A stretch of DNA of 64,000 bases, taken from Blasia pusilla. Lineage: Eukaryota. Below, piece by piece: positions 7,884 to 63,954 of this stretch. The stretch is from the NCBI GenBank assembly GCA_050084515.1, contig CM114271.1, positions 10,230,001-10,294,000 of the forward strand, read 5' to 3'. Under the pieces are notes generated by a model. It was not told the origin of the DNA, ran no database searches, and saw only the letters and a list, made by a program, of their open reading frames with translations. A program made the translations under genes and the position numbers. Numbering within the stretch: the stretch's first letter is position 1; every line of letters starts with the position of its first letter.

Positions 7884-8527
<644 letters not shown>

Positions 8528-8528
<1 letters not shown>

Positions 8529-12130: not shown

Positions 12131-12139
12131 TCAGCCAGC

Positions 12140-13197
12140 CAAAAAATACCGTTAAAAATACCGTTAAGAAAATCTTGGCCGCACGTTATTGGTGGCCAAC
12201 TATGTACAAAGATGTAGGTAACTTTATTCAAAGTTGTGATGCATGCCAAAGAGCAGGTCGACCAACGGCTACCTCAAGGTGGCCTTTGATACCCATCATG
12301 CCGCTAGCGCTACTTGAAAAATGGGGTATTGACTTTGTGGGCCCCATTTCCCCCGCTACTCGCCACATAAGGCGAAAATATATTTTGATAGCTACCAACT
12401 ATTGTACCAAGATGGTGGAGGCGGTGGCTACGCGCAAAGATGATAGTGAGGCTATGGTCAAATTTTTATACGAAATGATTATCACCCGGTATGGTTGCCC
12501 GTTGGAAATAGTAAGCAATCGAGGCACCCATTTTCTAAACCAGACTATTCAGTCTTTAACGTCACACTTTCTCATTAAGCATTGGAAGACCACGCTCTAC
12601 AACCCTAAAGCCAACGGGTTGACTGAAAAATGTAACGGCCTGATCTGCCAGATATTGAATCAATTGATGGTTACATATTCCTATGATTTGGACATGAAAA
12701 TCTCCGCGGCTTTGTGGGCATACCAAACAGCCAAGAAGATTACTACAAAGTATACCCCGTTCTTCTTGACTTATGGCATTCATCCCTTAACACCTATTGA
12801 ATGGGCTTTGCCCACTTATCGAGTGTTGGAAGGAACAAGAAAGGAGGCGATCGGCGAGGTTTTCCAGGGAAGGAATGAGACCTTAGTTGCGTTGGAGGAA
12901 GCACGCACGTTGGCTTTACGCCAGACCAAACGTGTGCAAAACGAACGCAAGCACCAATACGATTGACATCTCCGGCCGCAATCTATAAGCGTTGGAGACC
13001 TGGTGGTGTTGTATGATAACCGTCGGATAAAGTTCCCCGGAAAGTTAAAATTGAAGTGGATGGGACCTTATCGGGTATTGTCCATCTATGATAACGGATC
13101 ACTGCAGTTGGGGACCTTACAGGGCAAATCCCTGCCCACTCGTGTCAATGGGATGCATGTTTGGCGGTATCATGAGCCTCAACCCTACCCGGACTGA
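12140..13197 (+). pseudogene. pol: Gypsy integrase (rve core and GPY/F motif)
   Basis: YWWPTMYKDV...CDACQR, WGIDFVGPI, YGCPLEIVSNRG, YNPKANGLTEK, WMGPY. Confidence 0.95.
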
Positions 13198-13481
13198 AAC
13201 CGGAGGGAAGGGGGTGAGCGAGTGCCTGAAGCTTTGCAAAGGCGCGAAGCGCGATGTATGGGAGCTTTGCAGATGCGTGAAGCGCGAGAGTATTTGAGCT
13301 TCGCAAAAGAGCGAAGCGCCAAACTGACTATTGCACTCCCGGCACCAAGGCCAAGAACCCGCACAATGCTGGGACTATATAAGTGTCCCTACTTAACCGG
13401 ACGGGTATTTTCATGGACGGAGTCACCACAAAGTTGCGTAGCAGACCAAAGCGGGGCGTTCACTGAGATCGACCTACCAGC

Positions 13482-15168: not shown

Positions 15169-15375
15169 AACAAAGTATTAGGAAGTTTGCTAGTTGTTAA
15201 CAAATGGCGAGAGAGAATGCAAAATCACACCCCCAATATTATCAACAAAACTTCCACTATTCATGGTCGTTTTGCGCCTACACATGAGTTTGATAGTTTA
15301 GATAATACTTTTATGGAATTAGAAGAAACATCCTGAAGTGTTCGCCGGGGCGGCTCACATTTGAGGGAGGGGGTA

Positions 15376-16649
15376 TGTGATACCCAAACTTTCGTACTTT
15401 TGAAGAAATACATCTGTTTATTCAACGAAGACTTGTATATACATTATGGTTATGATTATTATATATTATTATGGAGAGGAATGAGTTAGATTAGAGTGAA
15501 TCACGAAGCTCCAAGGACAAGACAGAGAGATAGAAAATCAAGGATTTGCCTAAGAGGAGAGGAGAATAAAAAAACAAAGTCTAAACACCCAGCAAGAAGC
15601 TTTGGAAGGACAACAAAGCTCTGTTAAGCTCTGTCTATGAAGTGCTTTGCTCCTGAACGAAGCATAACGAAGCATGAAGAAGAAGAGAAAAAAAATACTT
15701 CGCTCTTGAACAAAGCTTGAAGAACGAAGCACGTGGAACAAGAACAAAGAATGGAGCACTTCGTCTTCAAATCAGGAGAAAGAGCTTCGTCCTCAAGCAA
15801 AGCAAAAGAGGTCCAGACTTATCAGCGAAGCAAAGCTAAGATTGACAGTGATTTCAAGCGACACATAGTTAGAACAGTTATAATAGGAATATGCGCAACT
15901 CTTTGTATCAGATAGGTACTTAAGACAATTTTGTTATGCGGATTCATAGGGATCTAAGGAAAAGAGAGGAGCACCATAAATCTAGGTAGTTACAAATGTT
16001 GAAGAGACACGAGCTTCATCAAGAACGCTTCAAATCTTTGGATTACTCCTACTTTAGAGAGTATTTAAGAAGCATGGAAGTAGCTATCATTATCATTCTT
16101 TTACGAAGTCCTCATGTTGTAGGAATGGTCCGAGCAAGGGAGTAGTACCCTCTTGAGCTTGTATACACTTTTGAAGCTTTCTCATTCTTGATGGAGTAGT
16201 AAAGCAATCATTCATTCATTTTGATGTGCGATGCTTATGTCTGAGTGTTCTTTTTGGGTCGGCAGAGTGAAGAGTGAATCAGGCAAACCTTTCTCATCAA
16301 TGGAATAATCAATATGGAGTTGTAGGAAATCTGTTTGACAGAGAGATGGATTGAATTCCGAAAGTAGGAGAAGCCAGCTTTCATGTTGAGGTCTCTGTGA
16401 GGTTTCTTGATATCGAGAGGAAATCTACCTGAGCGTGCTATCAACTCCACTAGAGAGAATTGAGAAAAGAAACCTTGGTACTAAGAAAGATCCGAAGATA
16501 TTGATGAGACATTGAATATAAATCATACACATTTAAATACAACTATTACAACAGAATTATAATTTCGAACTCTCTTTTCATCAAACAATGATCCTCTTGG
16601 GGATCGAACTCAGTAAACGACTGTAAAATTGAAACTCTTATACATTACA
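15376..16649 (+). repeat. 3' LTR, family D
   Basis: Follows the PPT. TGTGATACC...CATTACA. Matches 10010-11227. Confidence 0.95.
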
Positions 16650-20445: not shown

Positions 20446-21194
20446 ATTGGAGATATTTTGGTACTTCTTGTCTTGTTGTTTGGATGCCATAAGTTAGCAT
20501 GGGATCATGCGTGTTTATGTGTATGTTCGATGACAACCATGTATGTTGTGTAGCGATGTGTATGCGCACGATAGATGTCACGTCTTTTAGGATAGATCCG
20601 GGAGATATAGTAGAGCGCCTTTGGCAATACTAGAGGATAGCTTCGGGAGGTCGAGGATTACATGCTGAGGCCACGGATAGCCTAAGAGAACACGTTTCCC
20701 CTTTGTTTTGGCTCATTTGGAGCCATATAGAGAAACTTACAATTTCAGGTAAGTTTCCATTTGTATTATAGTTGACTTTCCACTTTGGAAAGTGGCCCTT
20801 AACCTACTATTGGAGGTCAAGAGCCAAGGAGGTGACCTCCGAGCATAGGTTACTGAGGAGAGAGCTTGGAAGAGGGAAGGGGGTATACCTCCAAGAGAAA
20901 GAGCTTGAGAGCTCATTCTCTCTTCGTTGAACCTCTTGGCATGAGGCGGCGGAGCTATGGTCTTGCTTGCCTTATGTGTGTAACCCAAGCCTCTCATAAG
21001 GAGAGTGGGTTTGGTTTGACATTAGAGAGAGTGCACACCAAGGAGAGCTTGGTGTGAGATATTGAGAGAGATTTGACCTTATTTTTATTGGAGATATTTT
21101 GGTACTTCTTATCTCATTGTTTGGATGCCATGAGTTAGCATGGGATGGTGCGTGTTTATGTGTATGTTGTGTAGCGATGTGTATGCGCACGACA
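20446..21194 (+). repeat. B1-A2-B2 3' terminal repeat block of copy 1
   Basis: 20446-20573 duplicates 21087-21194. The intervening 20576-21087 duplicates 7884-8528. Confidence 0.9.
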
Positions 21195-21359
21195 CGAAGA
21201 CAATGAAGACAAAGATGGCAAAGACACCCTTTCCTTGTCTACCTTGAGTCTTTGTAGGTCTTTGGGGGTCTTTGCGTCATAGACCTCAGAGTCTTTAAGA
21301 TGGCTCCTTGACACGCCTTGCACAAAGAGGATTGGTTGTACTTATTCCCCCTCCTTTAG

Positions 21360-30004: not shown

Positions 30005-30585
30005 TGTCGTGCCAATCCACATCATCATACAACATACATTGCTGACATACCATACTCACATACATACATAACATAGACGAGAGCATCCACAAACACAAGT
30101 GTACCACAACTGAAATCCGTGAAAGACCTATTGTCATAAAACATGTATATAATCACATACAATCGAGCCAAACCCACTCCACGATGGGAGAATCTAGGTC
30201 GAAGCTTGTAGGAAACACCATAGCCAAGAGCTCTACTCACTACCAAGGCTAACTCCCAACGCAACAGGCTCAACTCAAAGAACTAACTGTTCTTTGAGTG
30301 CACTCCACCTTATATCTTCCAACCTACGAGCGGGCCCTACTGGAAAAGTCACCCTCAACTGAGTAACCCCCAACCCTATGTATGAAATTGCATCTCTACC
30401 TAGACACTGCGGCCCTACATAAGGTATGGCCTCTACTAGCACACTATACTCTACGACATAATCCGTATGGTCATTACGGTGTCGATGAATCCACATCATC
30501 ATACAACATACATCGCTGACATACCATACTCACATACATACATGACATAGACGAGAGCATCCACAAACACAAGTGTACCACAACT
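30005..30585 (-). repeat. B1-A2-B2 3' terminal repeat block of copy 2
   Basis: 30014-30111 is nearly identical to 30488-30585. 30111-30475 is nearly identical to 39313-39676. Confidence 0.95.
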
Positions 30586-30758: not shown

Positions 30759-32000
30759 CTAAGTACATCGAGGACAAACCCACCTTCCAGTAGGAACAAC
30801 ATCCATACGTGGAGTCAAACACATCATGTGCCAACACCTAGAACACCGATCACACACCAACATACGGGCTGAGTTACCAGCAGACCCACACAACATGCAC
30901 CTCAAGCTAGCTCGTATCATGGCTAAGCTTGGGTCAACAGTACCATCCACATTTGGAAGATGACATGGCGCACAATTACGCACATGGTCCTTCCAAACAA
31001 CTCCATCACGACCCTCCAACATGAGAACTCCATAAGCTAACACCTCGCGCATTCGTAAAATAGTGCGGCCTGCCGTCACATCCAACGTTGTCAGTGCAAT
31101 CTGCTGCAAATAGACGTAGTCCCCCACATGGAACCTACGAATCGATGGTCGATAACCTCCACCCTGAATGGTTGCATACCGCAATGTATCCCTATGTTGA
31201 GCAATGGCAAGATTCTCAAAGGCTGTTGGCATAACTCTCATCCATATCTCTCGGTCATCAAGGTTCACCACCTCACTAGACTCCCAACGAATTGCTACTG
31301 GCAAGTCTAGATCTCGGCTATATAACAGAAAATAAGGTGAGAAGGAAGCCAAGGATGCTTGGCGACTGAACCCATACCCCATGGCTTACCATGGCAACTG
31401 AATATCCCAGTCTCCAAGATGCCCCTTATGCAGGCCATACTTGCGCAATGCCCTCTTCACCGTCTGAACCACACGCTCAGCCAAACCATCCGCCTTTGGA
31501 TGATCTCAAGACGTGGTCTAATGATCAATCAACTCCTTGTCACACAAGACGTGAAACTCACCCTGAAAATCTGTACCCTTGTCGGTCAGCACTTCAGCTG
31601 GTGCACCAAAATGACTAAGCACTCTATCAAGAAACGCATACGCCGTTCCCTCACTTGCCTTATCAGGTAATGCCACCAACTCATTCCACTTGGAGAAGTG
31701 CTCCACCATCACCAAACATATCAATGATGTCGTACAGTCAACGGTAACGGTCTCGCAAAGTCCACACTCCAAAGGTAACCCAAACCCATAATAGGCAAGG
31801 GGTGTAATTGTGGTGTAGGGGCATTGAATGATACCCTCACCCGATCACAAACCATACAACATGACACCAACTGCTGCACCTAAGTATGCATGCCACGCCA
31901 CCAATACTGACCAAGGAGTAAGCTATACGTACGCTTTACCCCAAAATGTCCCAACTCCTCATGGGCATGTCGCACAATGCGCTCTCTCTGAGCCAAATGC
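30759..32000 (-). pseudogene. pol: DDE integrase with C-terminal PHD finger (copy 2)
   Basis: HAHEELGHFGVKRT...YWW (HHCC), VEHFSKW, VLTDKG. C-terminus CMLC-x9-CDRC-x4-HMMC-x14-CPRC (Cys4-His-Cys3). Confidence 0.93.
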
Positions 32001-34049: not shown

Positions 34050-35040
34050 CCACAGACATAGTCCGAAGTCGACGCTGCTCGGCCATACCAAGACTCAAAA
34101 TCCAAGTCAAACAATTCAGATCCATGGCCTGACCCAACACATGACGTCGTGAAGCCTCATAAATGGAAGCAACCGCTATCACACCACTAGCAAATCCCAT
34201 CCCATGCTCACTCTCATCAGCGTTAGGCTCCACCAACTGTCGCACATGAGAATCCCATACAAGCCCGGGACCACCTTCCCTGTAGGCATGTGACGAGGGA
34301 AAACTCACCAATGTGGGTAGTGCCATCCTAGGCTAGCCCACACGGTTCACCACTGCCATGAGTGACCGATCAATAACCCTCACCACTTGAGAAAGTCGCC
34401 CAGTATCCAAGATACTATCCACTGTAAGGCAAGGATCCCGCTGCACTACATCATATGCTCGACGTAGAACCTCCCTAGGCAACAAGTTTGTCTACCACAA
34501 GCATGGATGATGTGCACGCGAGCCAACTCGCGCTGCATCCAACAACACCATTGGTCCAATCCAAGACCGCACCTCATGAACACTTGCCATCATTTGGGTC
34601 CGAGTGTCACCCAACAATGGAACATTCTCCAGAATGTAAGCTAGAGCATGTGCCTCATGAACCTGAAGATGTCGTAACATCGTAACATCTCCCAAAACAA
34701 TCGAGACCTAGGGTCGTGTAATCCCTCACCACGACCAGCACGTGTATGACCCTGACATGGCCATCCAGCAATCACCAGATCCACATGATCAACCCTCTCA
34801 AGGTCCTCCGCCCCCAACAATGCGATGTGTGACGGCAAAGCACGCTGGTACCCACAAATAGTTGATGGCGGCAACAACTCATGATGTCTCCGCATCAACT
34901 GACCAATCTGTCGGGATGAGACTCTCTGGGCCGTCTCATCTCGCTCCACATACCCGTATCTCCGCACAGAAATACCGGCCTGCAACAATGCAGCCAAACC
35001 AATGCTTATCCCACCAAAGAGATCTAACACACAAATGCCC
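34050..35040 (-). pseudogene. DNMT3-like C5 cytosine DNA methyltransferase domain within the retroelement polyprotein (frameshifted)
   Basis: Motif I ICVLDLFGGI (~35008-35036), motif II YVE, motif IV DLVIAGWPCQG (PCQ 34752-34760), motif VI YILENV (34621-34629), motif VIII region AHHPCLW*TNL, motif X region RRHVLGQAMD. Confidence 0.92.
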
Positions 35041-35456
35041 TCCGGCGGATACTGCCATACAATGGGTGTAGTATCCAAAGGGGATAACCCAACTTGATCA
35101 GAAGTAGGAGTCCGCCGTGGGGCCTCCTCTTCCTCGTGAGGTATAATAGCCTCACACCAAGCCTCCTGCCGTAGTGCACCGCCTAAACTCCAAAGTGGCA
35201 CATCCAACGATGAGGATGCCACTGCTGCAAAAATAGGGACCTCTTCTACCTCCTCATGCACAGGAGAATCCATAGCAGAAACATTACCCTCCAAAAAGTC
35301 TCCTGGCCAAGGGACTACTCCACTAAAACCAGCCACAGATACTAACACTATTGGGGAAGACCCTCCCGGTCGAGCCCCATAAATAAATCTCACAGGAACT
35401 TGGCTCATACGTCCATCCCCGGACTGCCAACCAGGTCTATAAGACGCTGTCTCAGT

Positions 35457-35882
35457 CTAGTAATCCATCTGAAAACCCATCGGGTACAATATTGCTCCTC
35501 CAACTAGTACATCATACGACTCAGCTGATGTGACTACAGCAGATATTCCCAACCGGGAGCTATCAGTCGCATGATCTGGTCTCATCTGTACAGAAAACTT
35601 CTCCCGTGTCATGAATTGAGACCTATCATTGGCTCCTCCAAGTGATGTTTGAATCTGGAATGGGCAAGGCTCAAGCTCTGACCTCTGAATATCCAAACCA
35701 ATACATGCCGCTTTTCCCAACATCAAAGGTTGGGCACCAGAGTCTAACAATACTCTATCTGGTCTATACACCTGTCTTGTAGGACTCACCAATCGGAATA
35801 TCCCACTCCGGTTGTCCAACATACATAGACCAGGTGTAAGCCTCTCACGATCAATGGCTGGTCGGGCTGGTAATGCATCCAT
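35457..35882 (-). pseudogene. Retropepsin-like aspartic protease (copy 2)
   Basis: VLLDSGA catalytic motif and YDVLVG. Confidence 0.9.
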
Positions 35883-37889
35883 CTTCGCCGCTGCTGCCTG
35901 TCAAGTAGCACTAGTACTCAATGCTACACCTGACATAGAGGGTCGCTCCACCGCAATACCCTCATCCACCTCAGCACGTGTAGCAGTAACACCCCCACGT
36001 TCACACAACGTGGCGGCTAGGTGAAATACAGGAGCTAAGTCAACTCCTAAAGCCATCAGCTCCATGGCCGAAAACAATGGGGATCCGAACACTGAAGTTG
36101 CCATCCGCTATACTGCATTGGATGCTGCATCCGTGTCTACTACACGCGATGTAGATGCCTCAATCTCCACTTTCGGCTCAATAGGCTGCATAGGAACCAT
36201 GGATGGAGTCCTAAGCACCTCAGACAACAAGAATGACTGGGGAAGCCTAGCCTGCCTTTGAGCCTCACCCCTCTGTGGGTCCAACTCCACAGTAGCACCA
36301 CGTGGTTTTGACGTTCAAGTGGCTCCTCTCGTAACTGCAGCCGATGCCTCAACCTGTGCTGCACTTGCCATATAAGAGAGATCATCCCCTCCATAAGAGA
36401 TGGAAGCCCTTGCTCCCGAATCTGATCTATGCTGGATACCAGCCATAGTAGCCAACTTCTCCTCCAACTGCTCAATCCTGGCAGCCATGGCTGACTCTGT
36501 TGTAGTGGTAGGGGTAGCCACCGTAGGCTCCAACCACTGGTCCACCTCTACCACCCCTACCACCTCCACCACCTCGGCCTCTCGGAGCTACTCCACCACG
36601 GCCGCGGCCTGATCTCAACTCTGGATGAAGATCAAAGCAACGCTCTCAAGGATGATCTGGTCTCCCGCAATGATCACATTGAGTTGGGTCCGACTGAGGC
36701 CCATCCTCTAAAGTCCGTCTCCCATCCTCTTGGGGACAAAACTTCCTAACATGATCACCTCCACATGTCCAACATGACTGTCCTTGCTGCGGGGCAGCAA
36801 ATGAAGGCAATGGTCTCTACGCAAGTGTCCCTGTAGGACTGGCGACCGAGGTCGTGTGTACCCCCACGACTCCCACTACTACTACCACCACCACTACTAC
36901 GAGAGGCGTGAGGTGGGTGCTGAACACGAAGTAGTAGTTGTATCCCTACTAAATGCGGATGTCACCACTCTCTCCTTCACCATGTTAAGCTCAATCTTCT
37001 CAGATAGAGCAAACACATGGGTCAATGTGGGTGAATCATCACTCATAAGTGTAGCATCACATACCCTGCGGCGCAACTCCCTGTCCAAGATCCCATACCA
37101 AAACTCGACTGCTTGAGCCTCAGTCACACCCTGGGTGACTGAAATCAAACGTCGCATACGAGTGTATGCCTCACGAAGACTCTCACCAGTCTTTCGCTCA
37201 AATTCTTGAAGGCTCCTCAACTTCTCTGTCTTCACTCCCTGATAGTTCTTCTTCAACCTCTTGAAGAACTTTGCAACGGGGATAAACGATGGTGGGGCAC
37301 TAGTACCTCCACTAGTACCCCCACTGGTACCTCCAGTGGTACCCCCACTCCGGCTCGTACTCGTACCACTCAACGTCGGGCTGGCTAGCATAGTAGGAGC
37401 ACTACTACCAATACCACCATGGGTGATAGACACATAGCCTGGAGACCAATATTGTCTCCACGCCTCAATCTCAACAACATGGTCCTTCCTAAACTCATGG
37501 TAATCATCCATGGGTGGTCCCTCAAGTCTTTGAAACAACCCCTTCCAAGCCAAGAAGGGTGTAAACAACGTGGCGTTCCGCAACATTTGCATATCACACC
37601 ACGTATCAAACTCCTGCATGAAGTCCTCCAACTCAATGGTGCCCACTGCACCCAAGTATCTTCGTGGGCCCTTCATGGCCCCATATATCCCGTCCATGTC
37701 CCAAATCAATGGAGCTGCAACACTCGTTAACAACGTAGAAGACTCGGTGTTTGGAACACCCTCGTCCTCCTCTTCATCAACCGTCGAAAGTGGAAAAGGT
37801 AGCCGATACCTAAATCCACTCCGTGTGAAACCACCACTATCCGCACCACGGTCCCCAACCAGACCACCCGACAGCTCCGCGATGACCAA
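35883..37889 (-). pseudogene. gag: gag with two CCHC zinc knuckles and linker (copy 2)
   Basis: GESLREAYTRMRRL (MHR-like). CWTCGGDHVRKFC (~36735-36774) and CDHCGRPDHP*ERC (~36637-36678). Confidence 0.85.
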
Positions 37890-39301
37890 CGCCGATGCCG
37901 CACCACCACCAAATTATCACCACTAAGTAACCAAGTGACGTCGATGTCGCTATACTATTCTAGCTCTACTAGCTATGGATGTAGGCAACCTAACCTGTCA
38001 TCACCACAAGAAGCCTCCCAGAGTCTACTGGTCATCACTCCAACCTCACTACCGGTAGCACACAGGAGTAACACTACTCTCGAAATCAGCATCAACCCTA
38101 ACAATGGGCGCCCAAGCAAAAAGCAATGATGGAGGGGATCCAAACAAAGGAAGTCCAACGACAATCCTCCAATCGCAAATGGAAATCAAGGTAACACAAT
38201 CCACCAAACGTGGCGCCCCCTGAATCCACAAAACCCACCACACAATCCTAATGCAATAGCTACTCCACCGCGGGTCGGTGACGTGCTAGTCGAACTCGCA
38301 GCACCTGAAAATATCACCTGCATGGAGAGGCTACACCGTACTATGCGCTAGAGGTCCATCAACCAAAAACCTGAGATGCATAAAGCGCCTAACACCTCTC
38401 CGAACAGCACCAAATGAGCTACAACAGTGTGTACACTGGCATAGTTAAGAACTCAGCAGTTAAGCGTCTTCCAGGCAGAATAGCCCAAAGATGGGTGACC
38501 AGTTATACAACACTCAATCCACAAATCCTGCAAAAATTGCCTCACGCCCAAGCAAGCAAGCTTGCTTGCTTGCTCCTTGCTCCTTACTCCGCCTCTCACG
38601 CCCACTCGCCCTGAGCTACCACGAGTTGCCTCAAAGCCTCCAATGGGATAGGAGTCTCCAACAATGAATGAGTCACCAACCAACCAGCCCCTCCGATCCG
38701 CTGTCCACCATAGACCTTGAGCTAGTCCGCGAAATTTCGATCAGCAATTACTCCAAAAATCCTCAACCAAAATTGAATATGTTTCAATCGGAATTCAATT
38801 GACCACCATAGCTATCTCTCCACAAAAAATCAGCTACAATCAAGCTCTGTACTCCGAGCTAAAAATCAGACAAACTTGCTGTCCATACACCTCCAGAATC
38901 GCAAATCCGACAGCGCTTCCGCCAAGTTTCATGCACGCAGAAACCTGCAACGCTCCACACACTCAAGCAGATAGCTTCACATGAGATCACAATACAAGTA
39001 GCAATAGGAATCTCTCACCCTATCTGGATGAACTTTAACAGAGCTTCCGCACTCCAAGCTCTCCACATCAGAAAACCGTCGAACACGAACCAGAATCTTC
39101 AATCCTTGATAACTTCCAACTCCCTTGACGAAATCCGGCGATCTAAAGCATGTTGGAAAGCTCTTAGCAAGGCGCTTCTTTCCCAACCAACCACACACTA
39201 GATTCACACCTCCAACATAGGCCACAATCCACGGCTGAGTACATAATCAGCCCTAACCAGATCCTATTGATCTACAATCGAAGCTACCATTGATCTACTT
39301 C

Positions 39302-39313
39302 AGTTCTTTGAGT
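39302..39313 (-). promoter_or_regulatory. Putative self-priming primer-binding site of copy 2
   Basis: Minus-strand ACTCAAAGAACT at the end of A1 is the exact complement of AGTTCTTTGAGT (39486-39475) inside A1. Confidence 0.65.
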
Positions 39314-39676
39314 GAAATCCGTGAAAGACCTACTGTCATAAAACATGTATAGAATCATATACAATCGAGCCAAACCCACTCCACGATGGGAGAATCTAGG
39401 TCGAAGCTTGCGGGAAACACCATAGCCAAGAGCTCTACTCACTACCAAGGCTAACTCCCAATGCAACAGGCTCAACTCAAAGAACTAACTGTTCTTTGAG
39501 TGCACTCCACCTAATATCCTCCAACCTAAGAGCGGGACCTACTGGAAAAGTCACCCTCAATTGAGTAACCCCCAACCCTATGTATGAAATCGCATCTCTA
39601 CCTAGACACTGCGGCCCTACATAAGGTATGGCCTCTACTAGCACACTATACTCTACGACATAATCCGTATGCTCAT
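39313..39676 (-). repeat. Terminal repeat A1 of copy 2
   Basis: Near-identical to 30111-30475. Confidence 0.95.
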
Positions 39677-40694
39677 GAAAACATCCACTCTATGAGGGAC
39701 GTTGGATGGTGAGTCCTCAGATCCAGATGCTAGTGAGGATTCATCAGGGACTGGAGACATCCACGATGATAAGATGGTCTTGGAGTTCCTGCGTATTGGT
39801 GTCTTAGCAAGCACGGTGGGTGCTAAAGAGCAAGATCGAGTCCTATAGCAAGCCAGGAGGTTTAGGTGGGAGGGTGGATTGAGTTGGTGGAGTTGGTAGC
39901 AGTTCTCCAAGTGGATTGAGTTGTGTTGTGATCACGTACTGATAGATCATCGTATGACTTCTTGAGATCATCGGGAGGCAAATGGTTTGGCAGAGAGAGT
40001 TGTGTAAACAGTGAAGAGAGGATTTCACAAGTATAGACTTCATAGAGGACACTTGGGAGATTGGGACCTACAATTTCCGTGGTTGGCGATGGATTACCGC
40101 TCTGTCGGCAGGCATCCTTGGCATCATTTTCATTGTATTTCTTGCTCTATGGGAGAGAGCCAAAGTTACCATCGTCGATTTGACAAGATGTGGTTGAGGT
40201 ACTTGACCTTCATGATCCAAACATATGGGTACAAGAGTGTTCTCAACGGGCTGAGTTCTTTCAGAGAGTCATGCCAATGGTGTTTGAGGTACGGGACTAC
40301 GCGTGGAGGAGGCTATCGTCGAGGGATTCGGAAATTTCATCCTCAAAATTATGTCTACCTATAGCAAACAGCGCCGACAATATTGGACGTGATGGCAAGA
40401 CGTATTATTGTGCGAGTACGAGAGACTTTACCTTCAAGAGTCCTTGTTCTAGAGGGTCATGATGGTATCATTTGGAAAGATTATGTGCGTAATTGTGCGC
40501 CATGTCATCTTCCAAACGTGGATGGGAGGATTGATCCAAGCTTGGAAGTTGTTCTTGAAGGCCTGAGATGCATGTTGTGTGGGTCTGCCAGAGGTGCAAC
40601 CACCATGCTAGTTTATGATGGGTGTTCTCGAGGATGGCATATGTCATCTTTCACGCCGCCTCTTGACTTGGTTTCTCAGGGACATTGGCTTTAG
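39677..40694 (+). pseudogene. DNMT-Gypsy copy 3, right part (internally deleted integrase and PHD)
   Basis: DIHDDKMVLEFL, GHLGDWDLQFPW, VRNCAPCHLPNVDG..CMLCGS..DGCSRGWH. Confidence 0.88.
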
Positions 40695-40698: not shown

Positions 40699-41562
<864 letters not shown>

Positions 41563-44199: not shown

Positions 44200-44494
44200 T
44201 GTCATCCTCTAACCTTGAAGGTACAGGGGAGGTGTAGGGTGAAGCACTTTCGTCCCTCTTCTTGCTCTTCTGCTTCGCACGAGGACAAGGACTAGGAGCT
44301 ACTCTTGGCGGTTTTCACGACATGTGGTCCTCTTGCTGCTTGTTCCTACGCTCAACAGGCTGATTCCGAGCTGATGGTCGGTCTTTGTCTATGGGTATCC
44401 CACGGGTTACAGTTCTTGGTTGCTCACCCAAGATTGTTACAAAGTGCAACTCCATGGATGGACAATTAGCTCTTCTCAATTTCTATGGTGGTGC
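44200..44494 (-). pseudogene. Athila-like leader / gag N-terminal fragment
   Basis: Similar to 48220-48420 (NKQQEDH..W.PP.V.PS..PR). Confidence 0.55.
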
Positions 44495-45615
44495 TGTAAT
44501 GTCCAAGTGTTTCTTATTTACAGTCAATTGTAGAGTTCGATCCCCAAGAGGATCATTGTTGGATGAAAAGAGAGTATAAAGTGATTATTATGTTGTGAAA
44601 GTAGTGTGATTGATTATGTAATTCAAATGTAGTATTCCAGTAACATCTTCCGATCCTTTTTAGTACATATGTTTTCTTCTTCAATTCTCTCGAGTGGAAT
44701 TTAAAGTACGCTCAGGCAATTTGTTCTCTCGACATCTCGGAACATCACACAGACCTCAAGAATAAAGTTGGCTTCTCCTACTTTCGGAACTTAATCCGTC
44801 TGGGTAGGTTACTCTCTGTCAAACAGATTTCATACAACTCTATGTTGATTATTCCATTGATGAGAAAGGTTACTTTGATTCATTCTTTACTTTACCGGAC
44901 CCAAAAGAATATTCAGACATAAGCATCGCACATCAGAATGAATGAATGAGTGATTTACGACTCCATCAAGAATTGGAAGACTTCAAAGTATATACAAGCT
45001 CGAGAGGGTACAACTCTCTTGCTCAGACCATTCCTACAGCATAAGGACTTCATGAGCGAATGATAATAATAGCTTCTGTCCTGTTTCTTAAATATTCTTG
45101 AGAGTAGGAGCGTTTCTATGATCCGAAGCGTTCTTGATGAAGTTGGTGTCTCTTCAATATCTGTAACTACCTAGATCTATGGTGTGCGTTCCTTTTCCTA
45201 TGATCCCTGTGAATCCGCGGTACAAAACTGTTCTAACTACCAATTTGATACAAAGGGTTGCGCCCCTTCCTAGTCTAATTGTTTTAACTATGTGCCGGTT
45301 CGAATCACAATCATGCTGAGCTTCGCTGCGCTAAATTTCCGGAGGACGAAGTTCTTCATTCTTCATTCTCTTCGTGCTTCGCTTAAGAGCAAAGTACTTT
45401 GTATACAGAGCTTTGTTGAGCTTCGCTAAGCTTCGCGTTGATCCTTTATACTTCGTTAAGGCTTTTGATTCTCCTCTAAGGCAAATCCTTGATCTTCCAT
45501 CTCTCTGCCTTGTCTTAGGAGCTTCGTGATTCACTTGAATCTTATTCGTTCTTCTCCATAATTGCATATAATAATCCAAACCATACTATACAAGAGTCTT
45601 TGTTCAATAAAAAGA
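44495..45615 (-). repeat. Family D LTR, 5'-truncated
   Basis: Reverse-complement match to ~10050-11227. Ends CATTACA at 44495. Confidence 0.88.
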
Positions 45616-45629
45616 TTCTCCCAATCCAC

Positions 45630-46199: not shown

Positions 46200-49100
46200 C
46201 CGTCTTTGTTGAGATACACCGGTGTATCTCATTAAAAATTGCAGCAGGGTTATGTTTGCCGGTGTTGACGCCAAGTCCCCGAGTTAGTCATAGGCTTCCA
46301 AGACCACAGGTGATGTCACGATGGCTTGTACTGCCGGACCCGTTCCGGTTCTCGAATTCTCTGTTGTCTACCTTCCTTCTGGCCCTTGGTCCTGGCAAAC
46401 TTGAGCCCGAACCTGGTCCTCAATATCCTGATGGAAGTACTTAGGGTGACTTCGATTGAAGGCAGGGTCAACATCGCCTTTTAGGATGGCCTTCCTGGCA
46501 CGGAAGGCGTCGACACTTTTTTTCTTGGAGTCTTTAGCTTCGCGCAAAGACGAAGCGCCTATCCGGATCTTGGTTTTCCCTCCGGGTTTGGGTTTTGGAC
46601 GTTGTGGTGACCGCGAGAGCTTCGTTCAGGAGTTCCGATGGCCACTCCGAGGAGTCTTCAGTTGCCGTCCCATCAGCCTCCTCTTCCCTAATGATAACTC
46701 GCCTTGCTTTAGGGGATACCAACTCCTCCACTAGGACGAGCTGAACATTCACTTCATTTTTGGACTCTGGTGGTGCCGCTAGGGTAGTTACATAGTTAAC
46801 CAGCAACCGCAGAACCTTGGGCTCCGTGCACTCCACTGTAGTATGCCCGCCTTTCTTACAATTCCCGCACAACGGATTGAGGCTGACAGGCCTCTTGGGG
46901 TCTGGGCAATTTTTGGCCCAATGGTCGGCCGCCCCGTAGTTATAACAATAGTTCCTTTTTATTGGCGGCGTGAAGGTCGCCGCACCCTCAATTTGTCTTA
47001 GGGGTCGTTGCTCCCCATACTCCGGGGGTACATATCTTGGTATCCAACTTCGTACTGAAGTAGGGGTTGGCATGGCCTGGATTGCATAACATCCTTCCCA
47101 TTGGTCAGCTTCATAACACCCTTCTTCCGCCGTTGGTTCTTCCTGGCTCCAATGTAAATCTCTTTGAGTATGACATTCTTGAGTTGTATGCCCTTGGGTT
47201 CCGCAGGCACTACACCACACATTGGGCCTCATCAGACCTGGTCATCTTCTGGGGTCCTTCTGGGCCGCCAGATGTACTTTTAATTCCGCCATTTGTTTGC
47301 TTAACTCTTCAATAGCAGACTTGCCCGACCTCTTCGATGTCCCTCGAACAGGGCTGATAGACCTTCGAGCACCATGCTTGGTAGGCTTGCCTTTCCTTCC
47401 TCGCTTGGGAGTATGGTGGCGTGTATATCGCTTCCGTTTGGATTTTCAGTCCTCTCCAGAGTTTGTGGACTCCGTCGTGCCATCCGTGGAGGCTTCGGTG
47501 TTTGTAGAGGACGCTTCATCCTCGGAAGAAGATCTAGTTTGCGAAGAACCTCATCGTTGATGACGCCATCTTCGCATTTTTCGGGATTTCTTGGAGGCCT
47601 CGTACGCCTGTGCGGATGCTATGACTGCTTCCAGGGAATCTCGTTGGCCTCGCCGGCAATACCAGTCCATTTCTTTGGACAATCGTGACACAAACCAATC
47701 TACCAATTGTGAGGTAGTAGTGTGTTCAAGTTTATTTACAAGGCTACAAAATCTTTGGGTGTATTCCCTGAGAGTTTCCTTCTTTTTACGTTTCAAGTCA
47801 CAAAGCTTTGTGAGAAGCCTGCCCTCAAACTCCAGGTCACGGAACTCATGAAGAAAGGCCTCCACTACCCTTTTCTAGGTTTCCGTGACATCCGCTCCCA
47901 GACCCTCATACCATTGGCTTGCTCACTTCTTAAGCAGGCCAAGAAAGACTCGCAACAAATCTTCCTTTGAGCCTTCCCCATTAGCCTTAGCTACATGGGT
48001 AAATTCAAGCACAAAGTTGTCAACATCATCTCGCCGTCCCCCTGCAAATGTGGGGTATCTTAGCAACGTCTTTCTAATGTTGGCCATTGGGAAATTTCTA
48101 CTGCTGGGTCCCGAGCTTGATGCTCAGGAGGGAGGAGGCAGTGGTTCTGATCTGGTTGATTTGGTCGGCTCCTCGTCCCTTGAGTCCCCAAAGGGATTCC
48201 AGGTTGACTCTTTGTCCGAGTGCAAACTGGCAAGAGACGTGTTGGGGAGCGTATTCCTGTCCCTCTTCTTGATCTTGGGCTTCTTACGAGGCCGAAGACT
48301 GGGAGACACCCCCGGCGGTCTCCAAGACCGGTGATCTTCTTGTTGCTTATTGGGTCGATCAGCTTGCTGATCTCGAGATGAGGGTCGGGAGACTTCCATG
48401 AGTCCCTTCTGGGATTTGGGAGCTTGCTTCCGCACCCACGATCGCCATAAGGTAGGGGTCCATGGAGGGAAATTGGATCTTCCTAATTCCTACAAGAGTG
48501 TGCGGGTGCTCTTAATCTACCTCCCGGGTTTCCCTCCCATAAATAGAAGTACCGGGTCATCACCAAGTACAACTGACGTTCATGGGCAAAGCATTGTTCG
48601 GCGACTAGTTCTTTGACAATACTAATTAGTTGTTCTATCTTTTCTAGCACCAATGCAGCAAACCGGTTGTTATCTTCTTTCATCCATTGTCTTAGGGGGA
48701 TAGCTAGAGATAGCAGATGGCCTTCAGTAAGAACTATATGGTTGGGTCTCCTAGGAGACGAGGCTTCTTTCCCCGCTCCTGGGTTCCCCATGAGTCTCTT
48801 TCTCTTCCCACCAAAGCTTATGATCCCCGGCAACGGCGCCAAAAAGTTTTATCCCTTATATGTAATGTACAATGAGTAACAAAATTGATCTTTTTACAAT
48901 AATTTAATGAGTTCGATCCCCAAGAGGATCATTGTTTGGTGGAAAGAGAGTTCAAAATTACAATTCTCTTGCAATAATTGTATTTAAGTGTATATGATTT
49001 AGATTAAATGATTTATTAACGTCGTCGGATCTATCTTAGTACCAAGATTCCTTTCCTCAATTCTCTCTAGTGGAGCTGACATCACGCTCAGGTAGATTTC

Positions 49101-49312
49101 CTCTCAATATCAAGAAACCTCAAAGAGACTTCAACATGAAAGCTGGCTTCTCCTACTTTCGAAACTCAATCCGTCTCGGCACGCTACTCTGTGTCAAACA
49201 GATTTCCTACAACTCCATGTTGATTATTCCATTGATGAGAAAGGTTCACCTGATTCACTCTTCACTCTGCAGACCCAAAAAGAATACTCATACATAAGCA
49301 TCGCACATCAGA
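46200..49312 (-). mobile_element. 5' part of an Athila-like Gypsy (partial family D LTR 48861-49312, tRNA-Asp PBS, gag with three CCHC knuckles)
   Basis: LTR end CATTACA at 48861. PBS 48822-48841. gag ORFs 47551-47865 and 46534-47232. Confidence 0.9.
48822..48841 (-). promoter_or_regulatory. Primer-binding site, tRNA-Asp
   Basis: TGGCGCCGTTGCCGGGGATC, complementary to the plant tRNA-Asp(GUC) 3' end as I recall it; typical of Athila. Confidence 0.9.
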
Positions 49313-49719
49313 ACTTTGTAAGTAAATAAAGTGGAGTTTGTATTGTACCTTCTTTCTCCACTTTCGTACATTTGGGCTCTCAACTTCCATTGTGAAAAAT
49401 TTTAAACATGCATGTCAGATCTTCTGATTAGTTGGTTTTAGATGAACTCAAGTTTGGTTCATTAAGTTTCTATTTATTGGATCTTACAATTTGCTGACCA
49501 ATACTTATCCCATCAATCTGGTTTCTAACATGAAAATGGATAGAAATTTTCTCGTTATGAGGGGAATTTTTTTGATGATCTCACTATATATTTTCTTATT
49601 CTATGGATTCTCTTACAAGAAGAAATGTACGCACAATATATCTTATTCTTCTTTTGTTAACTATTGTACAACTAAAATCACAATAATACTACCACTATCA
49701 CTGGTTAGAAGACTTATTA

Positions 49720-50328: not shown

Positions 50329-50792
50329 AGAGTGCACACCATGGAGACCTTGGTGTGAGATCAAACCCACTCTCTAAATGAGAGGCTTGGATGTTACATA
50401 CAAGACAAGGATGGCGATAGCTCCGTCACCTCATGCCAAGAGGTTCAACAAAGAGAGAATGAGCTCTCAAACTCACTCTCTTGGAGGTATATCCCCTTCC
50501 CTCTCCCAAGCCCTCTCCACGATGACTTATGCTCGCGCATCACCTCCTTTGCTCTTGACCTGCTGTAGCATATCAAGGGCCACTTCCCAAAGTGGAAAGT
50601 CAACTATAACCAAAATTGGCAACTTGCCCAAAATAGCAATTTCCTCAATATGGCTCCAAATGAGCTGAAAAGAAGGGGAAACCTGCTCTCTCAAGTAACC
50701 TGTGGCCTCCTCTTCCACCTCCTGAGGCTCTCCTCTAGTCTCTCCGAAGGCGCTCTACTAGATCTCGTCGATCTATCTTAAGAGACGTAACA
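50329..50792 (-). repeat. Isolated A repeat of the DNMT-Gypsy copy-1 subfamily, last ~32 bp inverted
   Basis: 50361-50792 reverse complement aligns with 20576-21020. 50329-50360 matches 21027-21059 in plus orientation. Confidence 0.85.
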
Positions 50793-58951: not shown

Positions 58952-59291
58952 TGTAGGAAATTAGTTTGTACAATGAAACAAATCAGCAAATTGCTAATTG
59001 ATAGTAGTCGATCTAAATATTGATCACACGGATCAACCCATATGGACGATCTAGATTAGATTAGGATCAATTTTCTTCTTATGACCATTGATTACTGCTA
59101 GTAACGTTTCATCTTGCGAAACGATACATAGCTATGAGACATTTCTGAAGTGACACAGTTACCGTCACGTCTTTTGATTACGGATCTTAGTTTAGCGCAG
59201 ACTTTACTAATTATGTATCAGCTTTCAATCTATCAACACAGAGAACACAGAGAGTAAAAATGAATTTTCAATTCATTCCAAAATTCTCACA
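58952..59291 (+). repeat. Copia 5' LTR
   Basis: Direct repeat of 63616-63954. Confidence 0.97.
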
Positions 59292-59489
59292 TGGTATCAG
59301 AGTCTGGTCGCTAGTCACTACTTTTACAATTTTCAAAAAGGATTGGAATTTGAGGGACGCTTCAACATTCCTAGAGTAGAGGGGATGCCTTCTGCTCAAA
59401 CGCCTTTCTCGTTTCTATTTTCTTGGTGGCTGCTGACTTCAGATTCTTACGAATTCGAAGTCCTTGACCCTTTTCTGTCACTTTCATCA

Positions 59490-62400
59490 ATGGAAAATGG
59501 TGAATACTACCATGTTCTTCAAGATCGACGACATCCCAAAATTTGACGGGACCTATTTCTATATTTGGTGATTATGCATGAGATTTTACCTTGATGCCAA
59601 AGATCTTGTAGGCATCATAGAAGGTACAACTCCAAAGCCAACATCGGCTACCGCTCTTGCCATGGGCGTTGGGAGTGTCCACGAATGGGAGATTCTCAAC
59701 CGAATTGCCTTATCTTTCATAGGGAATCGTTTAGACAATTCGCAATTCATCATATCAATTCTGTTACGACTGCAGCAAAAGCTTGGACGAAATTAGATTC
59801 TTTATACCAAGTCCGAGATGATGTCACAAAAATGTATCTGCAAGATGAATTGCATACTCTTAATATGAAAGAAGGCAATAATCGTTACCAAACATGTCGA
59901 TCAATTTAGGACATTAATTGATCAACTCCACGCTGCTGGATCGGTGACTACTGATGAAAATCAATATCTTGCATTGATGCAATCAATGCCCAACAGTTAC
60001 CGAAATTTATTGACCTCATTGCAAGGTCAAAGTAATCTTATTTTGCAATCTGTGATCACTTTCCTTCTTACGGAGGAGAAAATGATGAAGACGTAGAATG
60101 TTGAACCGTCCTCAGCTCTTTTTGTTGGACGAGGTTTTTCCTCTTTTCAATCGAAGTCCAAATTTGGCAATTCAAGGCAAGGTGGCTCTTACAGAGGTTA
60201 CGGTCGAGACAAAGCTCCTCAGAAAAGGCTTTAGTCCTTTCAAATCAGGATTTGTTCATGCTTCTATGACGATTCCATATGGCGAAGCGTCCAATCATCA
60301 AGCTGATTGGCAGACTTCATCCTCCAATCAAAAGAACACTTATAAGAAAATGAGGTGTTTCTACTGAAATTTTCAGGGGCATCATATTAAAGATTCCAAA
60401 AAAATCTTGCAGATCAGAAAAAGCAGTCCAGACTTTCTGCTCCTATAGCCAATTTTACGTCTCATCTCTTCTTTACTGTCGCCTATTCGACTTCCGCTTG
60501 CGAAATTCAAGATAACACATGGTATCTTGATATTGGTGCTATGCATCATATGGCCTTCTCCATTGATTATTTTTTGGATTACACTCCTTATGAAAAATTG
60601 TCGTATGTTTTTGTGGGTGATAATTCTAGTGTGGAGATCAGAGGCTCTGGTCAAGTAGAGATCCTTTTGACTAATGGTACTTGACACTTTCTTCGGAATG
60701 TCCTATATATACCAAGCTTAAAGAAAAAAAATTTCTCAGTCAAGCAACTAGATGATTCAGAAGGATTTGCCTTGATTCATAAAGGACACTGCGTACTCCG
60801 TGACTCTATAGACCAAATCATTACAACGTGTTTCTTAATCAGTGATTTGTACAAACTCGGAGAAGCTGTTCTTCCACCCTTCGGATCTTCTATCATTAAA
60901 GCTGCCAGTGTGGTTCTTCCCATGATTTCTGATCTGTGGCATCACCGTTTGGGACACATTAGTACTACTCGGGTTTCTCAACTATTACAACAACAAATGG
61001 CTGGCGGTCTTCCAACGCATAGTCCCTCGCAGCTTTCTTCATGTCGAGCTTGCCTACATGGCAAACAAACCCACAAACCTTTTTCTAATACGATTCCAGT
61101 CTATAAAGCCCTCAATGTTTTAGAATTAATCCATACTGATATTTATGGGCCTCTTTCTCCCCCTACTCATTTGGGCTTTCGCTATTTCATGGTCTTTATT
61201 GACGATTTCTCCCAATATACTACTGTTTACCTCCAAAGCGTTTTCTTGTTTCACTGAATTTGTGGCTAATGTAGAGACGGAGCATCAACCTCCACGCATT
61301 CAAGCATTGTGATTTGACAATGGTGGTGAATATAAGTCATCTGCTTCTTTCTTAGACTTATGCCATTCTTGAGGAATCTCCAGGCAGTTCACTGTTCCCC
61401 ACACACCACACCAAAATGGTGTTTCAGAACGTAAGAACATAACTCTTGCTAATTCTGTACGTTCTATGCTTTTCCATTCCGCTCTCCCCATGACTTATTA
61501 GGGTGAAGCGTTGGTCACTGCCAATTATTTGCAAAATCGTCTTCCGAGCAAAGCATTGCCACATTCCAAAACACCATATGAGTTATGGTTTAATCGTAAA
61601 CCTGCATTATCTCATCTTCATATTTTTGGAAGTCCTGCATTTGCTAAAATCAATGATCCTCATTCAAAGCAGGATTTTTGCACTGAGGAATGCAATTTCT
61701 AAGTTATAGTGACCAAAGCAAAGCCCGGCCTTTCGAGAGGCTGAGGGACAAACTATCATTCTCTCATGTGATGCTAAAGTTCTTGAAGATTAGACTACTC
61801 AGACCACTCCATCGTTTGCTTCTTCTGATTGCAGAAGATTTGGCTATCAGATATGATCCTCTATTTTTCCGCTCATCCCCTAATCTTCAAACTTCCTTGC
61901 CTATTCGTGCTACTTACCTGGTCATGGGCGTTTCCATCTTTACTATGAAAGAAGAAAACGAGCTCCTACTCCTACTCTTGCTCAAAGAAAAAGTCCTCGC
62001 ATTACTCGGGCTGTTGAGCGTTACAATGCACTTATTGAAGCTAATAAGAACAAGAAGCGAGTTTCAGAGAAGCGTTGGGCCTTGCTCTCTTCTACCAGTT
62101 CTTTTCTCGAACCCCAATCTTATGAAGAGGCTATCTATGGACCTGATTCTTCACATTGGAAGGCTGCCATTTCTGCTGAACTTCAGAATATGGCTTGAAT
62201 GAAGGCTTGGACATTAGTTCCCCTTCCTCCCAATTGCTAAAGGATTTACTCAAGTTCCTGATCTTGATTACGAAGAAACTTTTTCTCCTACGGTTAAACT
62301 TCAATCTCTTTGTATTCTTATTGCTATTGATGCTTATTTCAATCTTGATTTACATCAATTAGATGTAATTGTGGCTTTTCTATATGGGTTCTTGCAACAC

Positions 62401-63585
62401 AGGATCTACATGGCTCTTCCTCCTGGCTGGCCAGTTCCAAATAATAACTTGGTCCGCCTTCTAGGAAGATCCATTTATGGTTTGAAGGAATCATCCCGTA
62501 TGTGGTATGAACGATGTCACTATGTTTTACTTGACATTGGTTTTGTCAACACCACTGTTGACTCTAATATTTACATTCTGAACAAGGACTACAATTTTCT
62601 TATCCTTGCTCTCTACGTGGATGATACTATCATTACCAGCTCCAATTCTGCATTGCTTCATTTTGTCAAAAGCAAGCTCTGCCAAGAGTTTGAAATGATT
62701 GACCTTGGTGAGGCTTATCATGTTCTGGGAATGGATATCCAGCGAGAACGGCAACAAGGATGGATCCGGCTCAACCAGACGACTTATATCACCAACAAAC
62801 TCAAACAATTCAATATGCTGGACTGCACACCTATCTCCACTTTCTTTGATTTTGGCCTTCATCTAAGTCAAGATCAATCTCATGTTGATCCCGCTGACAT
62901 CGCAACAATGCCTTATATTCCTTATAAAAGTGCTACGGGCAATTTAATCGGGGCAATGGTGTGCACTCGCCTCGATATTGCCTATTCTATTTGCATTGTT
63001 GTACAATTTATGACCAATCGTGGTCCTGTACAGAGGATTGCTGTCAAAAGTATTTTCAAGTATCTCCAAGGGAAAAAACATTACTTTCTCCAATATTAGC
63101 GCTCATCTACTCCTTTTCATCTTCAAGGATATTCTGATGCTGCCTATAGAGACAATATTGACTTCCAAAAATCTACCATCGGATTTTGCTTTGTCCTTGC
63201 AGGAGGAGCAGTTAGCTCAGCAAGTAGAAAACAAAAATCACTTGCCCTTTCCAGTACTGAGTCTAAGTACATTGCAGTGACTAAAACTAGCACCGAAGCT
63301 ATTTGGATCAGAAGATTACTTTACGAAATTGGTTTTGCTCATAAGATAACTGAGATCTTCTGTGACAACCAGAGTGCAATTGCTTTGGTCAATTCTATAA
63401 AAAAATCATGATTGGATCAAACACATCGACATTCAATACCACTATATCAAAGATCAAGTATCAAGTGGCGAAATTATTTTGACCTATTTTTCAACTGCAA
63501 AGATGACTGCACACATTTTTACTAAGGGTTTATAGAAAGGACCTCATCAGAAATACACTACATCTCTAGGGTTATCTAGTCATGA
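59490..63585 (+). pseudogene. pol: Copia gag-pol, many stops and frameshifts
   Basis: WYLDIGA, LWHHRLGH..CRAC, IHTDIYGP..FIDDFS, TPHQNGVSER, IYGLKESSRMWY, LYVDD, GYSDA, KHIDIQYHYI. Confidence 0.95.
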
Positions 63586-63615
63586 AAATGGCTTATTTGT
63601 TCCCCTGAGTGGGAG

Positions 63616-63954
63616 TGTTGGAAATTAGTTTGTACAGTGAAACAAATCAGCAAAATGCTTATTGATAGTAGTCGATCTAAATATTGATCACACGGATCGA
63701 CCCATACAGATGATCTAGATTAGATTAGGATAAATATTCTGCTTATGACCGTTGATTACTGCTAGAAATGTTTCACCTTAGAAACGATACATAGCTATGA
63801 GACATTTGTAAAGTGACACAGTTACCGTCACGTCTTTTGATTACGGCTCTTAGTTTAGCGCAGACTTTACTACTTATATATCGGCTTTCAATCTATCAAC
63901 ACAGAGAAAATAGAGAGTAAAAACGCATTTTCAATTCATTCCGCAATTCTTACA
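63616..63954 (+). repeat. Copia 3' LTR
   Basis: Direct repeat of 58952-59291. Confidence 0.97.

Follow-up and report, generated by a model that had tools for sequence, protein, structure and literature searches.

How does a retrotransposon begin reverse transcription when no tRNA-type primer-binding site adjoins its 5' repeat? This question is raised by copy 2, a decayed 9.6-kb element on the minus strand of a 64,000-nucleotide stretch of Blasia pusilla DNA (assembly GCA_050084515.1, contig CM114271.1, positions 10,230,001 to 10,294,000). That whole stretch is referred to here as the window, and its own numbering is used throughout; it is eukaryotic, transposon-dense and 43.6% G+C. A second copy, copy 1, lies on the plus strand, is ~73% related to copy 2 from reverse transcriptase (RT) to integrase, and is broken by another long terminal repeat (LTR) element at 10007–16649. 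A preliminary description of the window had proposed that these elements, like the fission yeast retrotransposon Tf1, prime reverse transcription with the 5' end of their own transcript. We consider Tf1-like self-priming to be, with some confidence, the best reading of the site and its complementary partner. The position of the pair at the repeat boundary, its recurrence in 48 related loci and the lack of a TGG block beside the repeat all speak for the proposal, while covariation within the family does not.

In the proposed mechanism, the RNA would begin some 30 nt past a TATA box, at 39486 or close to it (8356 in copy 1), and its first 11–12 bases would fold back on the complementary 11–12 bases that start just past the 5' repeat. 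RNase H would cleave after the duplex, and the freed 3' end would be extended through the repeat. Later plus-strand synthesis would then copy the primer, rewriting the binding site in each cycle. Because the site would be recopied from the primer every time, the Tf1 model leads one to expect matched sites and partners as subfamilies diverge. For Tf1 itself, PMC7175516 describes how the first 11 RNA bases pair to the binding site and how RNase H cleaves between bases 11 and 12. In the elements of the window, we infer the start site, the cleavage and the priming itself, and we observe the sequence relations described below.

Complementarity at the repeat boundary

Both window copies have the order A1 - site - coding region - polypurine-like AGGGGG - B1 - short spacer - A2 - B2, where A and B are direct repeats. 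The features needed for the argument are as follows.

39313–39675, minus strand: 5' repeat A1 of copy 2, 363 nt, with TG..CA termini
30111–30474, minus strand: 3' repeat A2 of copy 2, 96.4% identical to A1 over 364 nt (39675–39313 against 30474–30111), with the same partner at 30284–30273 and TATAAG at 30314–30309
39302–39312, minus strand: putative primer-binding site of copy 2, CTCAAAGAACT, 11 nt, starting at the first base past the repeat
39475–39486, minus strand: partner of copy 2, AGTTCTTTGAGT, the predicted first transcript bases, of which the first 11 are the putative self-primer
7879–8528, plus strand: 5' repeat A1 of copy 1, containing a (GA)n expansion at 8202–8344
8353–8368, plus strand: partner of copy 1, CTCATTCTCTCTTTGT, with the start predicted at the A of TCATTCT (8356)
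8528–8543, plus strand: putative primer-binding site of copy 1, ACAAAGAGAGGATGAG, the site proper running from 8529
20571–21087, plus strand: 3' repeat A2 of copy 1, flanked by B1 upstream (from 20446) and B2 downstream (from 21087), with the partner at 20912–20927 and TATAC at 20884
6266–6280, minus strand: third fragment, consisting of a repeat end and ACAAAGAGAGAATGA, its own partner lost
50448–50463, minus strand: third copy-1-type partner, CTCATTCTCTCTTTGT, in a shortened repeat

In copy 2, ACTCAAAGAACT (39313–39302) is the perfect reverse complement of AGTTCTTTGAGT (39486–39475) on the minus strand. The comparison of the 5' and 3' repeats stops at 39313/30111, so the 12-mer consists of the last repeat base and the next 11 bases: CTCAAAGAACT (39312–39302) perfectly complements AGTTCTTTGAG (39486–39476), and the last repeat base, 39313, gives the twelfth pair. 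Copy 1 has the same arrangement. Its repeat stops at 8528, and ACAAAGAGAGGATGAG forms 15 Watson–Crick pairs out of 16 with CTCATTCTCTCTTTGT, plus one G.U, around a 10-nt perfect core; the site from 8529 pairs with 8353–8367 (including the G.U) and 8528 pairs with 8368. The duplex ends alike in both copies, with ..UUUG(AG) and then a final U that pairs with the last repeat base. Both complementarities had been reported in the preliminary description and are confirmed at these coordinates. The third fragment, cited there as a further perfect instance, bears out the claim in part: the reverse complement of 6266–6280 reads ACAAAGAGAGAATGA, and a (GA)n run stands in place of the partner region, so that this fragment shows conservation of the site only.

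The two subfamilies share the core TCTTTG/CAAAGA, and their flanks differ but match. In copy 2 and its relatives, 5'-AGT-TCTTTG-AG pairs with CT-CAAAGA-ACT, while copy 1 has ATTCTC-TCTTTG paired with CAAAGA-GAGGAT (GAGAAT in the third fragment). Different sequences with the pairing kept, as had been claimed, are thus what copies 1 and 2 contain. We regard these matched differences, drawn from two lineages and carrying no statistics, as a suggestive signal and as what appears to be the real covariation here.

Conservation was followed in metagenome contigs, where a gag-homologue search returned 386 relatives; the best 80 were kept, with 6-kb flanks that fall short of the 3' repeats. The region from TATA box to primer site is present in 48 of these 80 loci, whose gag shows 54–71% identity. 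The remaining loci comprise 19 with less than 600 nt upstream of gag and 13 that are shortened or unmatched, five of which are cut ~13 nt before the repeat end with the site still kept. No copy-1-type subfamily was found among the 80. The 48 loci and window copy 2 make up an alignment of 49 rows, in which the order is GGTATAAAG, GGGCTCAAAGAAC-ATA-GTTCTTTGAG, a conserved block GAGTGGGCTTGG, and ..CATTTTCA abutting CTCAAAGAACT.

Across this alignment, the 12 proposed pairs are in standard pairing in 91.6% of 521 cells, compared with 36–55% when the partners are slid by 1–3 columns. Taken row by row (n=49), 10 are perfect, 18 are perfect with G.U allowed, 33 have at least 10 of 11 pairs, and four have the partner deleted. 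Conservation ends abruptly, the majority-base frequency being 1.0 at site base 11 and 0.41 in the next column. The persistence of pairing in other copies, on which the initial proposal had been staked, is seen in 48 related loci.

Promoter geometry, transcripts and folding

Two features upstream of the partner in copy 2 bear on where its RNA may begin.

39511–39516, minus strand: TATA-like box of copy 2, TATTAG, its T 30 nt before 39486
39491–39501, minus strand: upstream arm, ACTCAAAGAAC, a direct copy of the primer-binding site that can form a hairpin with 39485–39475

The predicted transcript begins AGUUCUUUGAG... at 39486. We take TTAGTTC in copy 2 and TCATTCT in copy 1 to fit the initiator consensus. 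Among the 41 rows measured, the TATA T stands 29 nt before the first base of the partner in 14 and 31 nt before it in 23. In the 3' repeat of copy 1, TATAC (20884) and CTCATT (20912) are 28 nt apart, or 31 nt to the A, and in its 5' repeat the (GA)n expansion parts the TATA motif (8191) from the partner (8353). A TATA-like motif about 30 nt upstream, initially claimed for both copies, thus applies to copy 2 and to the 3' repeat of copy 1 only. Similarly, the TATAAG ascribed to A2 of copy 2 is found in that 3' repeat and in nearly all RNA reads, and the 5' repeat reads TATTAG at 39516–39511; the variant at 39513 is carried by 76/78, 127/132 and 75/76 main-direction RNA reads in the three runs described next.

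These three raw RNA runs, which bear the same species label as the best-matching DNA data, were aligned to 39000–39800 at 90% likeness. Almost all reads have one direction, which is the element sense strand if the library follows the usual convention, and the copy 2 family is transcribed. Depth is 0 upstream of the repeat, 125–176 at its first bases and 82–171 down to 39432, after which it declines steadily to 11–27 at 39297–39323 and 2.5–17 in the leader. Most of the repeat coverage comes from 3' repeats, since between 104 and 128 reads in each run continue upstream past 39678/39682 and enter the end of the internal region. The drop in depth at 39675–39701 and loose read ends at 39678/39682 suggest that the left end of the family lies 3–5 nt farther upstream of 39675, near 39678. 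A rise of 6–11 reads from bin 39486–39512 to bin 39459–39485, present in all three runs, was set aside as unusable because a three-base variant at 39511–39513 confounds it.

Several side observations come from the same interval. At 39487, the base before the predicted start, a T>C change in the element sense gives TCAGTTC in 40–58% of RNA reads, compared with ~6% of DNA word depth, and the transcribed copies may be a subset with TCAGTTC. A few reads (4, 9 and 5 in the three runs) join 39646 back to 39358, a step of 289 nt that is absent from the DNA contigs aligned; this suggests either an internal tandem duplication in a variant of the repeat or a junction from one repeat to another. Additionally, summed DNA word depth at 39000–39800 in one DNA run is ~3.7e3 to 3.6e5 in the repeat and 5–155 in the unique flank; the copy 2 family appears to be very abundant, with thousands of copies.

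Folding of single sequences agrees with the proposed duplex. In RNAs spanning 39486–39290 and 8356–8552, the 5' end pairs with the site in both minimum-energy and centroid folds, with modest z-scores (-1.8 for copy 2 and -1.9 for copy 1). Among the family RNAs, at least 9 of 11 pairs are present in the minimum-energy fold in 29/45, and the mean pair probability is at least 0.5 in 34/45.

The upstream arm complicates this picture. It had been described as CTCAAAGAAC at 39499–39490; the arm exists and pairs with the partner, and its correct coordinates are 39500–39491. The hairpin occurs in both subfamilies, the equivalent of the arm in copy 1 being the spot of the (GA)n expansion. With a start ~30 nt after the TATA box, transcription would begin within the hairpin loop, leaving the 5' copy in the RNA with a free primer and the 3' copy folded. 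This geometry is consistent with self-priming, yet also with its main rival. Long (GA)n/(CT)n microsatellites lie within copy-1-type repeats at 8202–8344, 6325–6445 and 40700–40803, at the position of the GA-rich upstream arm, a location suggesting that the expansion was seeded by the arm.

Weighing self-priming against other readings

A number of observations weigh against self-priming. Within the 49-row family, covariation is not significant, as shuffles reach the observed percentage paired in 96/500 trials and the covariation score in 113/500; the phrase 'supported by covariation', used at the outset, thus holds between the two subfamilies and fails within the family. Double changes occur in five cells only (four rows with G:C to A:U at one pair, one row with U:A to C:G), and C>T or G>A decay accounts for most variation in the alignment. 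Being GA/CT-rich, the copy 1 pair is low-complexity sequence. No 5' end is callable at 39486 in the three RNA runs, where 10–20 reads would be swamped, and the sole flagged pile-up of reads is at 39519, with 25 and 23 molecules in two of the three runs. This pile-up sits just upstream of the TATA box, with no loose letters among the rows shown. The comparison with tRNAs covers the TGG motif. Moreover, the integrase ends in a PHD finger instead of a chromodomain and the RT is not placed in the Tf1/sushi clade, for which reasons the family is classed as functioning like Tf1 and not as a clade member. RNAalifold does not return the 11-bp duplex, either on the 45 rows that retain a partner or in a second run that omits L014, L027 and L062 (loci with indels or divergence), and in both runs it pairs bases 12–16 (TTGAG) with the first five site bases. 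Finally, the hairpin of arm and partner pairs equally well, in 90.0% of 448 cells over the 49 rows, a level that shuffles reach in 191/500 trials, and the conserved unit could be a promoter-proximal palindrome with a repeated arm.

The main rival, which we think improbable, builds on this last point. It posits a core-promoter palindrome (arm, short loop and partner) with a third copy of the arm past the repeat, which would serve transcription control or the replication or integration of the split repeats while another primer is used. The near-equal pairing of hairpin and long-range duplex (90.0% against 91.6% of cells) and the presence of the hairpin in both subfamilies suit this reading, as do the DIRS-like A-coding-B-A-B repeats, whose replication is not understood, and an RNA start at 39486 that is a prediction. 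It leaves unexplained, however, why the third copy starts exactly past the repeat in both subfamilies and why conservation stops after 11 bases. Furthermore, no other candidate primer site adjoins the repeat, and the polypurine-like tract before B1 together with the site after A1 fits ordinary retroelement logic. Should self-priming prove to be wrong, a conserved core-promoter palindrome would still need explaining.

We hold it to be clearly less probable that a host RNA (a tRNA, a tRNA half or fragment, or a small RNA) primes at or near the site or at a TGG block 24–45 nt downstream. Priming by half-tRNAs exists in plant copia elements, according to PMC6317226, and ARAGORN detected no tRNA genes for comparison either in the window or among the 80 loci. 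Yet, as had been stated for A1, no TGG-type tRNA site adjoins the repeat: in copy 2 a TGG first occurs at least 24 nt downstream and in copy 1 at ~45 nt, and these TGG regions differ between the subfamilies. The site itself also differs between subfamilies and tracks each one's own repeat, and Rfam gives no match in 39100–39750. A tRNA-primed neighbour in the window serves as a control, the element at 58952–63954 having TGGTATCAGAGT directly after its 5' LTR (offset 0). We take TGGTATCAGAGT to be the usual initiator-Met type of site. This control is a copia-sized LTR element whose 340-nt LTRs are 91% identical, with TG..CA termini and a 5-bp target duplication, ATTGT.

A little further down the scale stands self-priming in another register or from another start, for which we see slim prospects: transcription might begin upstream of the arm, with a 5' hairpin to be opened, or bases 12–16 (TTGAG) might pair. 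RNAalifold picks the 12–16 register in both runs, TTGAG occurs twice in the partner region, and the start at 39486 is a prediction. By the usual spacing rule, however, a TATA box lying only ~15 nt before the arm leaves too little room for a start upstream of the arm. In folds of single sequences the 11-bp register is preferred, to judge from the 34/45 RNAs mentioned above, and copy 1 is without the second register.

A chance match is exceedingly improbable: short inverted repeats do occur, with 12-mers and 11-mers having a perfect complement in the preceding 363 nt at 23/63,625 and 43/63,626 window positions per strand, respectively, but two subfamilies that differ in sequence have the pair at one and the same structural position, it recurs in 48 loci, and two other LTR elements of the window, those at 58952–63954 and 10007, have no comparable match at that position (at most 6 nt).

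Split repeats, coding domains and related elements

The B repeats and the coding domains of copy 2 lie as follows.

30488–30585, minus strand: repeat B1, preceded by polypurine-like AGGGGGG
30014–30111, minus strand: repeat B2, directly after A2, 98% identical to B1 and followed by the right end ..GGCACGACA
36897–37913, minus strand: gag (Pfam)
34641–35456, minus strand: cytosine-5 DNA methylase PF00145 (Pfam, E 9e-7), upstream of the RT
After the methylase in element order, minus strand: RT, RNase H and integrase zinc domain (Pfam)
30759–31385, minus strand: PHD finger PF00628 (Pfam, E 4e-10), after the integrase

Priming is tied here to a second puzzle, namely that DIRS-like split repeats are kept by a Gypsy element with a DDE integrase. 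In both window copies the A2-B2 junction falls exactly at the last repeat base, the very point at which a primer on the site would initiate DNA synthesis. Both window copies share the right end ..CGCACGACA with at least five distinct metagenome loci, and the left end is TGTCA...; the termini are TGTC..GACA, and locus L016 has a 4-bp target duplication, ACTA. The spacer between B1 and A2 holds a palindrome, GACAGCTGTC, in the RNA-read consensus. One metagenome locus (L031:11892–12180) consists of a partial A running from the predicted RNA start to the repeat end, then CTCAAAGAAAT, GCT, B and the usual right end. Its A-to-B junction retains 10 of 11 site bases and 2 of the 3 bases preceding B, which fits a real primer site, although the case stands alone and the region is rearranged.

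The primer site and the polypurine tract delimit an 'LTR' made of B, spacer and A, whereas integrated copies run from A to B. Each integrated copy therefore has an internal B-A junction, plus an A-B junction where cDNA ends would meet. It is possible, though we think it rather doubtful, that this Gypsy element primes itself and that its cDNA is inserted in a form other than the ordinary LTR-to-LTR molecule; it looks as if a circular form with a two-LTR-type junction were opened at the palindrome by the DDE integrase. In that event, the arm hairpin would be present only in the 3' copy in the RNA and would either mask that copy of the primer or provide a second fold-back primer. The exact A-to-B junctions yield testable predictions on cDNA ends.

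Some further observations concern the layout. It is the arrangement that would result if a two-LTR circle, each LTR being (B-spacer-A), were cut open at the palindrome. Split repeats are seen at L012, L016, L031 and L057 and in the window at 30014–30585 and 20446–21200, and some loci end in B without A2-B2. Two deletion derivatives (L002:1613 and L051:7303) have internal sequence joined to the first base of B, the join in L051 falling inside a region that matches the window pol frame just upstream of the RT. Two candidate interpretations were dropped: a 3' unit of L031 starting at the RNA start with a compensated G:C to U:A pair, for which global alignment left boundary and register ambiguous, and a local rearrangement as the source of the 98-nt repeats, as copy 1 and the literature show the same A-coding-B-A-B order.

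On its sequence, the host element is unusual, a Gypsy-type element that combines a DNA methyltransferase (DNMT), a PHD finger and DIRS-like split repeats. Intact relatives have RVT, PF00145, rve and PHD (PF00628) in one protein, for example P0092 with 1516 aa. Liverworts, Marchantia polymorpha among them, harbour such relatives, and the same set of domains is found in Marchantia, Calypogeia and JGI records (e.g. P0074 and P0092). The gag protein is 43–86% identical to proteins of Marchantia polymorpha, Calypogeia fissa and Sphagnum species; together with the intact relatives, this marks the host as bryophyte-like. Outside its own family, the RT is ~33–48% identical to a mixed set of Gypsy elements. 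As a lead only, the Atlas clusters closest to the RT occur most often in Basidiomycota, Streptophyta and Chordata; a viral contig scan gave no RT relatives. The rve and integrase zinc-binding domains are signs of a DDE integrase, and no tyrosine recombinase was found among the open reading frame (ORF) pieces scanned. Pfam detects no chromodomain in 30759–31385, the integrase C-terminus. We read the translations of 34492–35456 as placing DNMT motifs I and IV in a single ORF, with ENV following in a shifted frame; by the same reading, a DSG-containing stretch at 35457–35900, in which Pfam has no match, resembles an aspartic protease.

Among known systems, Tf1 and Tf2 of Schizosaccharomyces pombe are alike in having no tRNA site and 11 nt past the 5' LTR that complement the RNA 5' end, which is predicted here. 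About half of Tf1 cDNA retains the binding-site sequence, according to PMC11042837, and the L031 junction is alike in this respect. Unlike Tf1/sushi elements, the family has a PHD finger in place of a chromodomain, a DNMT in pol and split A-coding-B-A-B repeats. A further difference from Tf1 is the conserved upstream arm that hairpins with the primer sequence, and the RNA start and RNase H cut are predictions in the present case. In plants, self-priming has been predicted in silico for 12% of the elements surveyed, bryophyte hosts included (Neumann et al. 2019, PMC6317226). The same paper names Tcn1 (Ty3/gypsy, moss and club-moss) and TAR (Ty1/copia) as plant LTR retrotransposons likewise predicted to self-prime. 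Tcn1 is a chromovirus clade of moss and club-moss there, whereas the nearest named proteins of our family are from liverworts and Sphagnum, with DNMT and PHD.

An A-coding-B-A-B order has been reported in retrotransposons that bear a DNMT, among them the Gypsy-type KnitGypsy-Dnmt3 (de Mendoza et al. 2018, PMC5890265). KnitGypsy-Dnmt3, from Klebsormidium nitens, shares with our family a DNMT domain in a Gypsy-order pol and the A-coding-B-A-B layout; the hosts differ. The terms 'primer binding' and 'PHD' are absent from the main text of PMC5890265. DIRS, PAT-like and Ngaro elements share the split direct repeats A1..B1-A2-B2, but they have a tyrosine recombinase, whereas the present family has a DDE integrase, TGTC..GACA termini and the 4-bp duplication in L016. 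We found no literature linking self-priming to the DNMT/PHD family, a search that did not extend to the per-element supplement of PMC6317226, which may list it, and none on an LTR retrotransposon with PHD and integrase in Marchantia.

The mechanism has thus already been predicted for other plant elements, and the family is, on the self-priming reading, a further case of a known process in an unusual host element. In the literature consulted, bench proof of self-priming concerns Tf1/Tf2 only, and the plant cases are in-silico predictions. The family is a clean test case, with a repeat word depth about a thousand-fold that of the flank, transcription, intact liverwort relatives and two matched subfamilies.

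A second LTR family in the window, with LTRs of ~1.2 kb ending ACATTACA, occurs at 10007–16649, 44494–45616, 48861–49313 and 4739–6169. It is nested in copy 1 and abuts the third fragment. Its copy at 10007 is without a TGG adjoining the LTR, and the copy at 48861 has TGGCGCCGTTGCCGGGG ~20 nt downstream.

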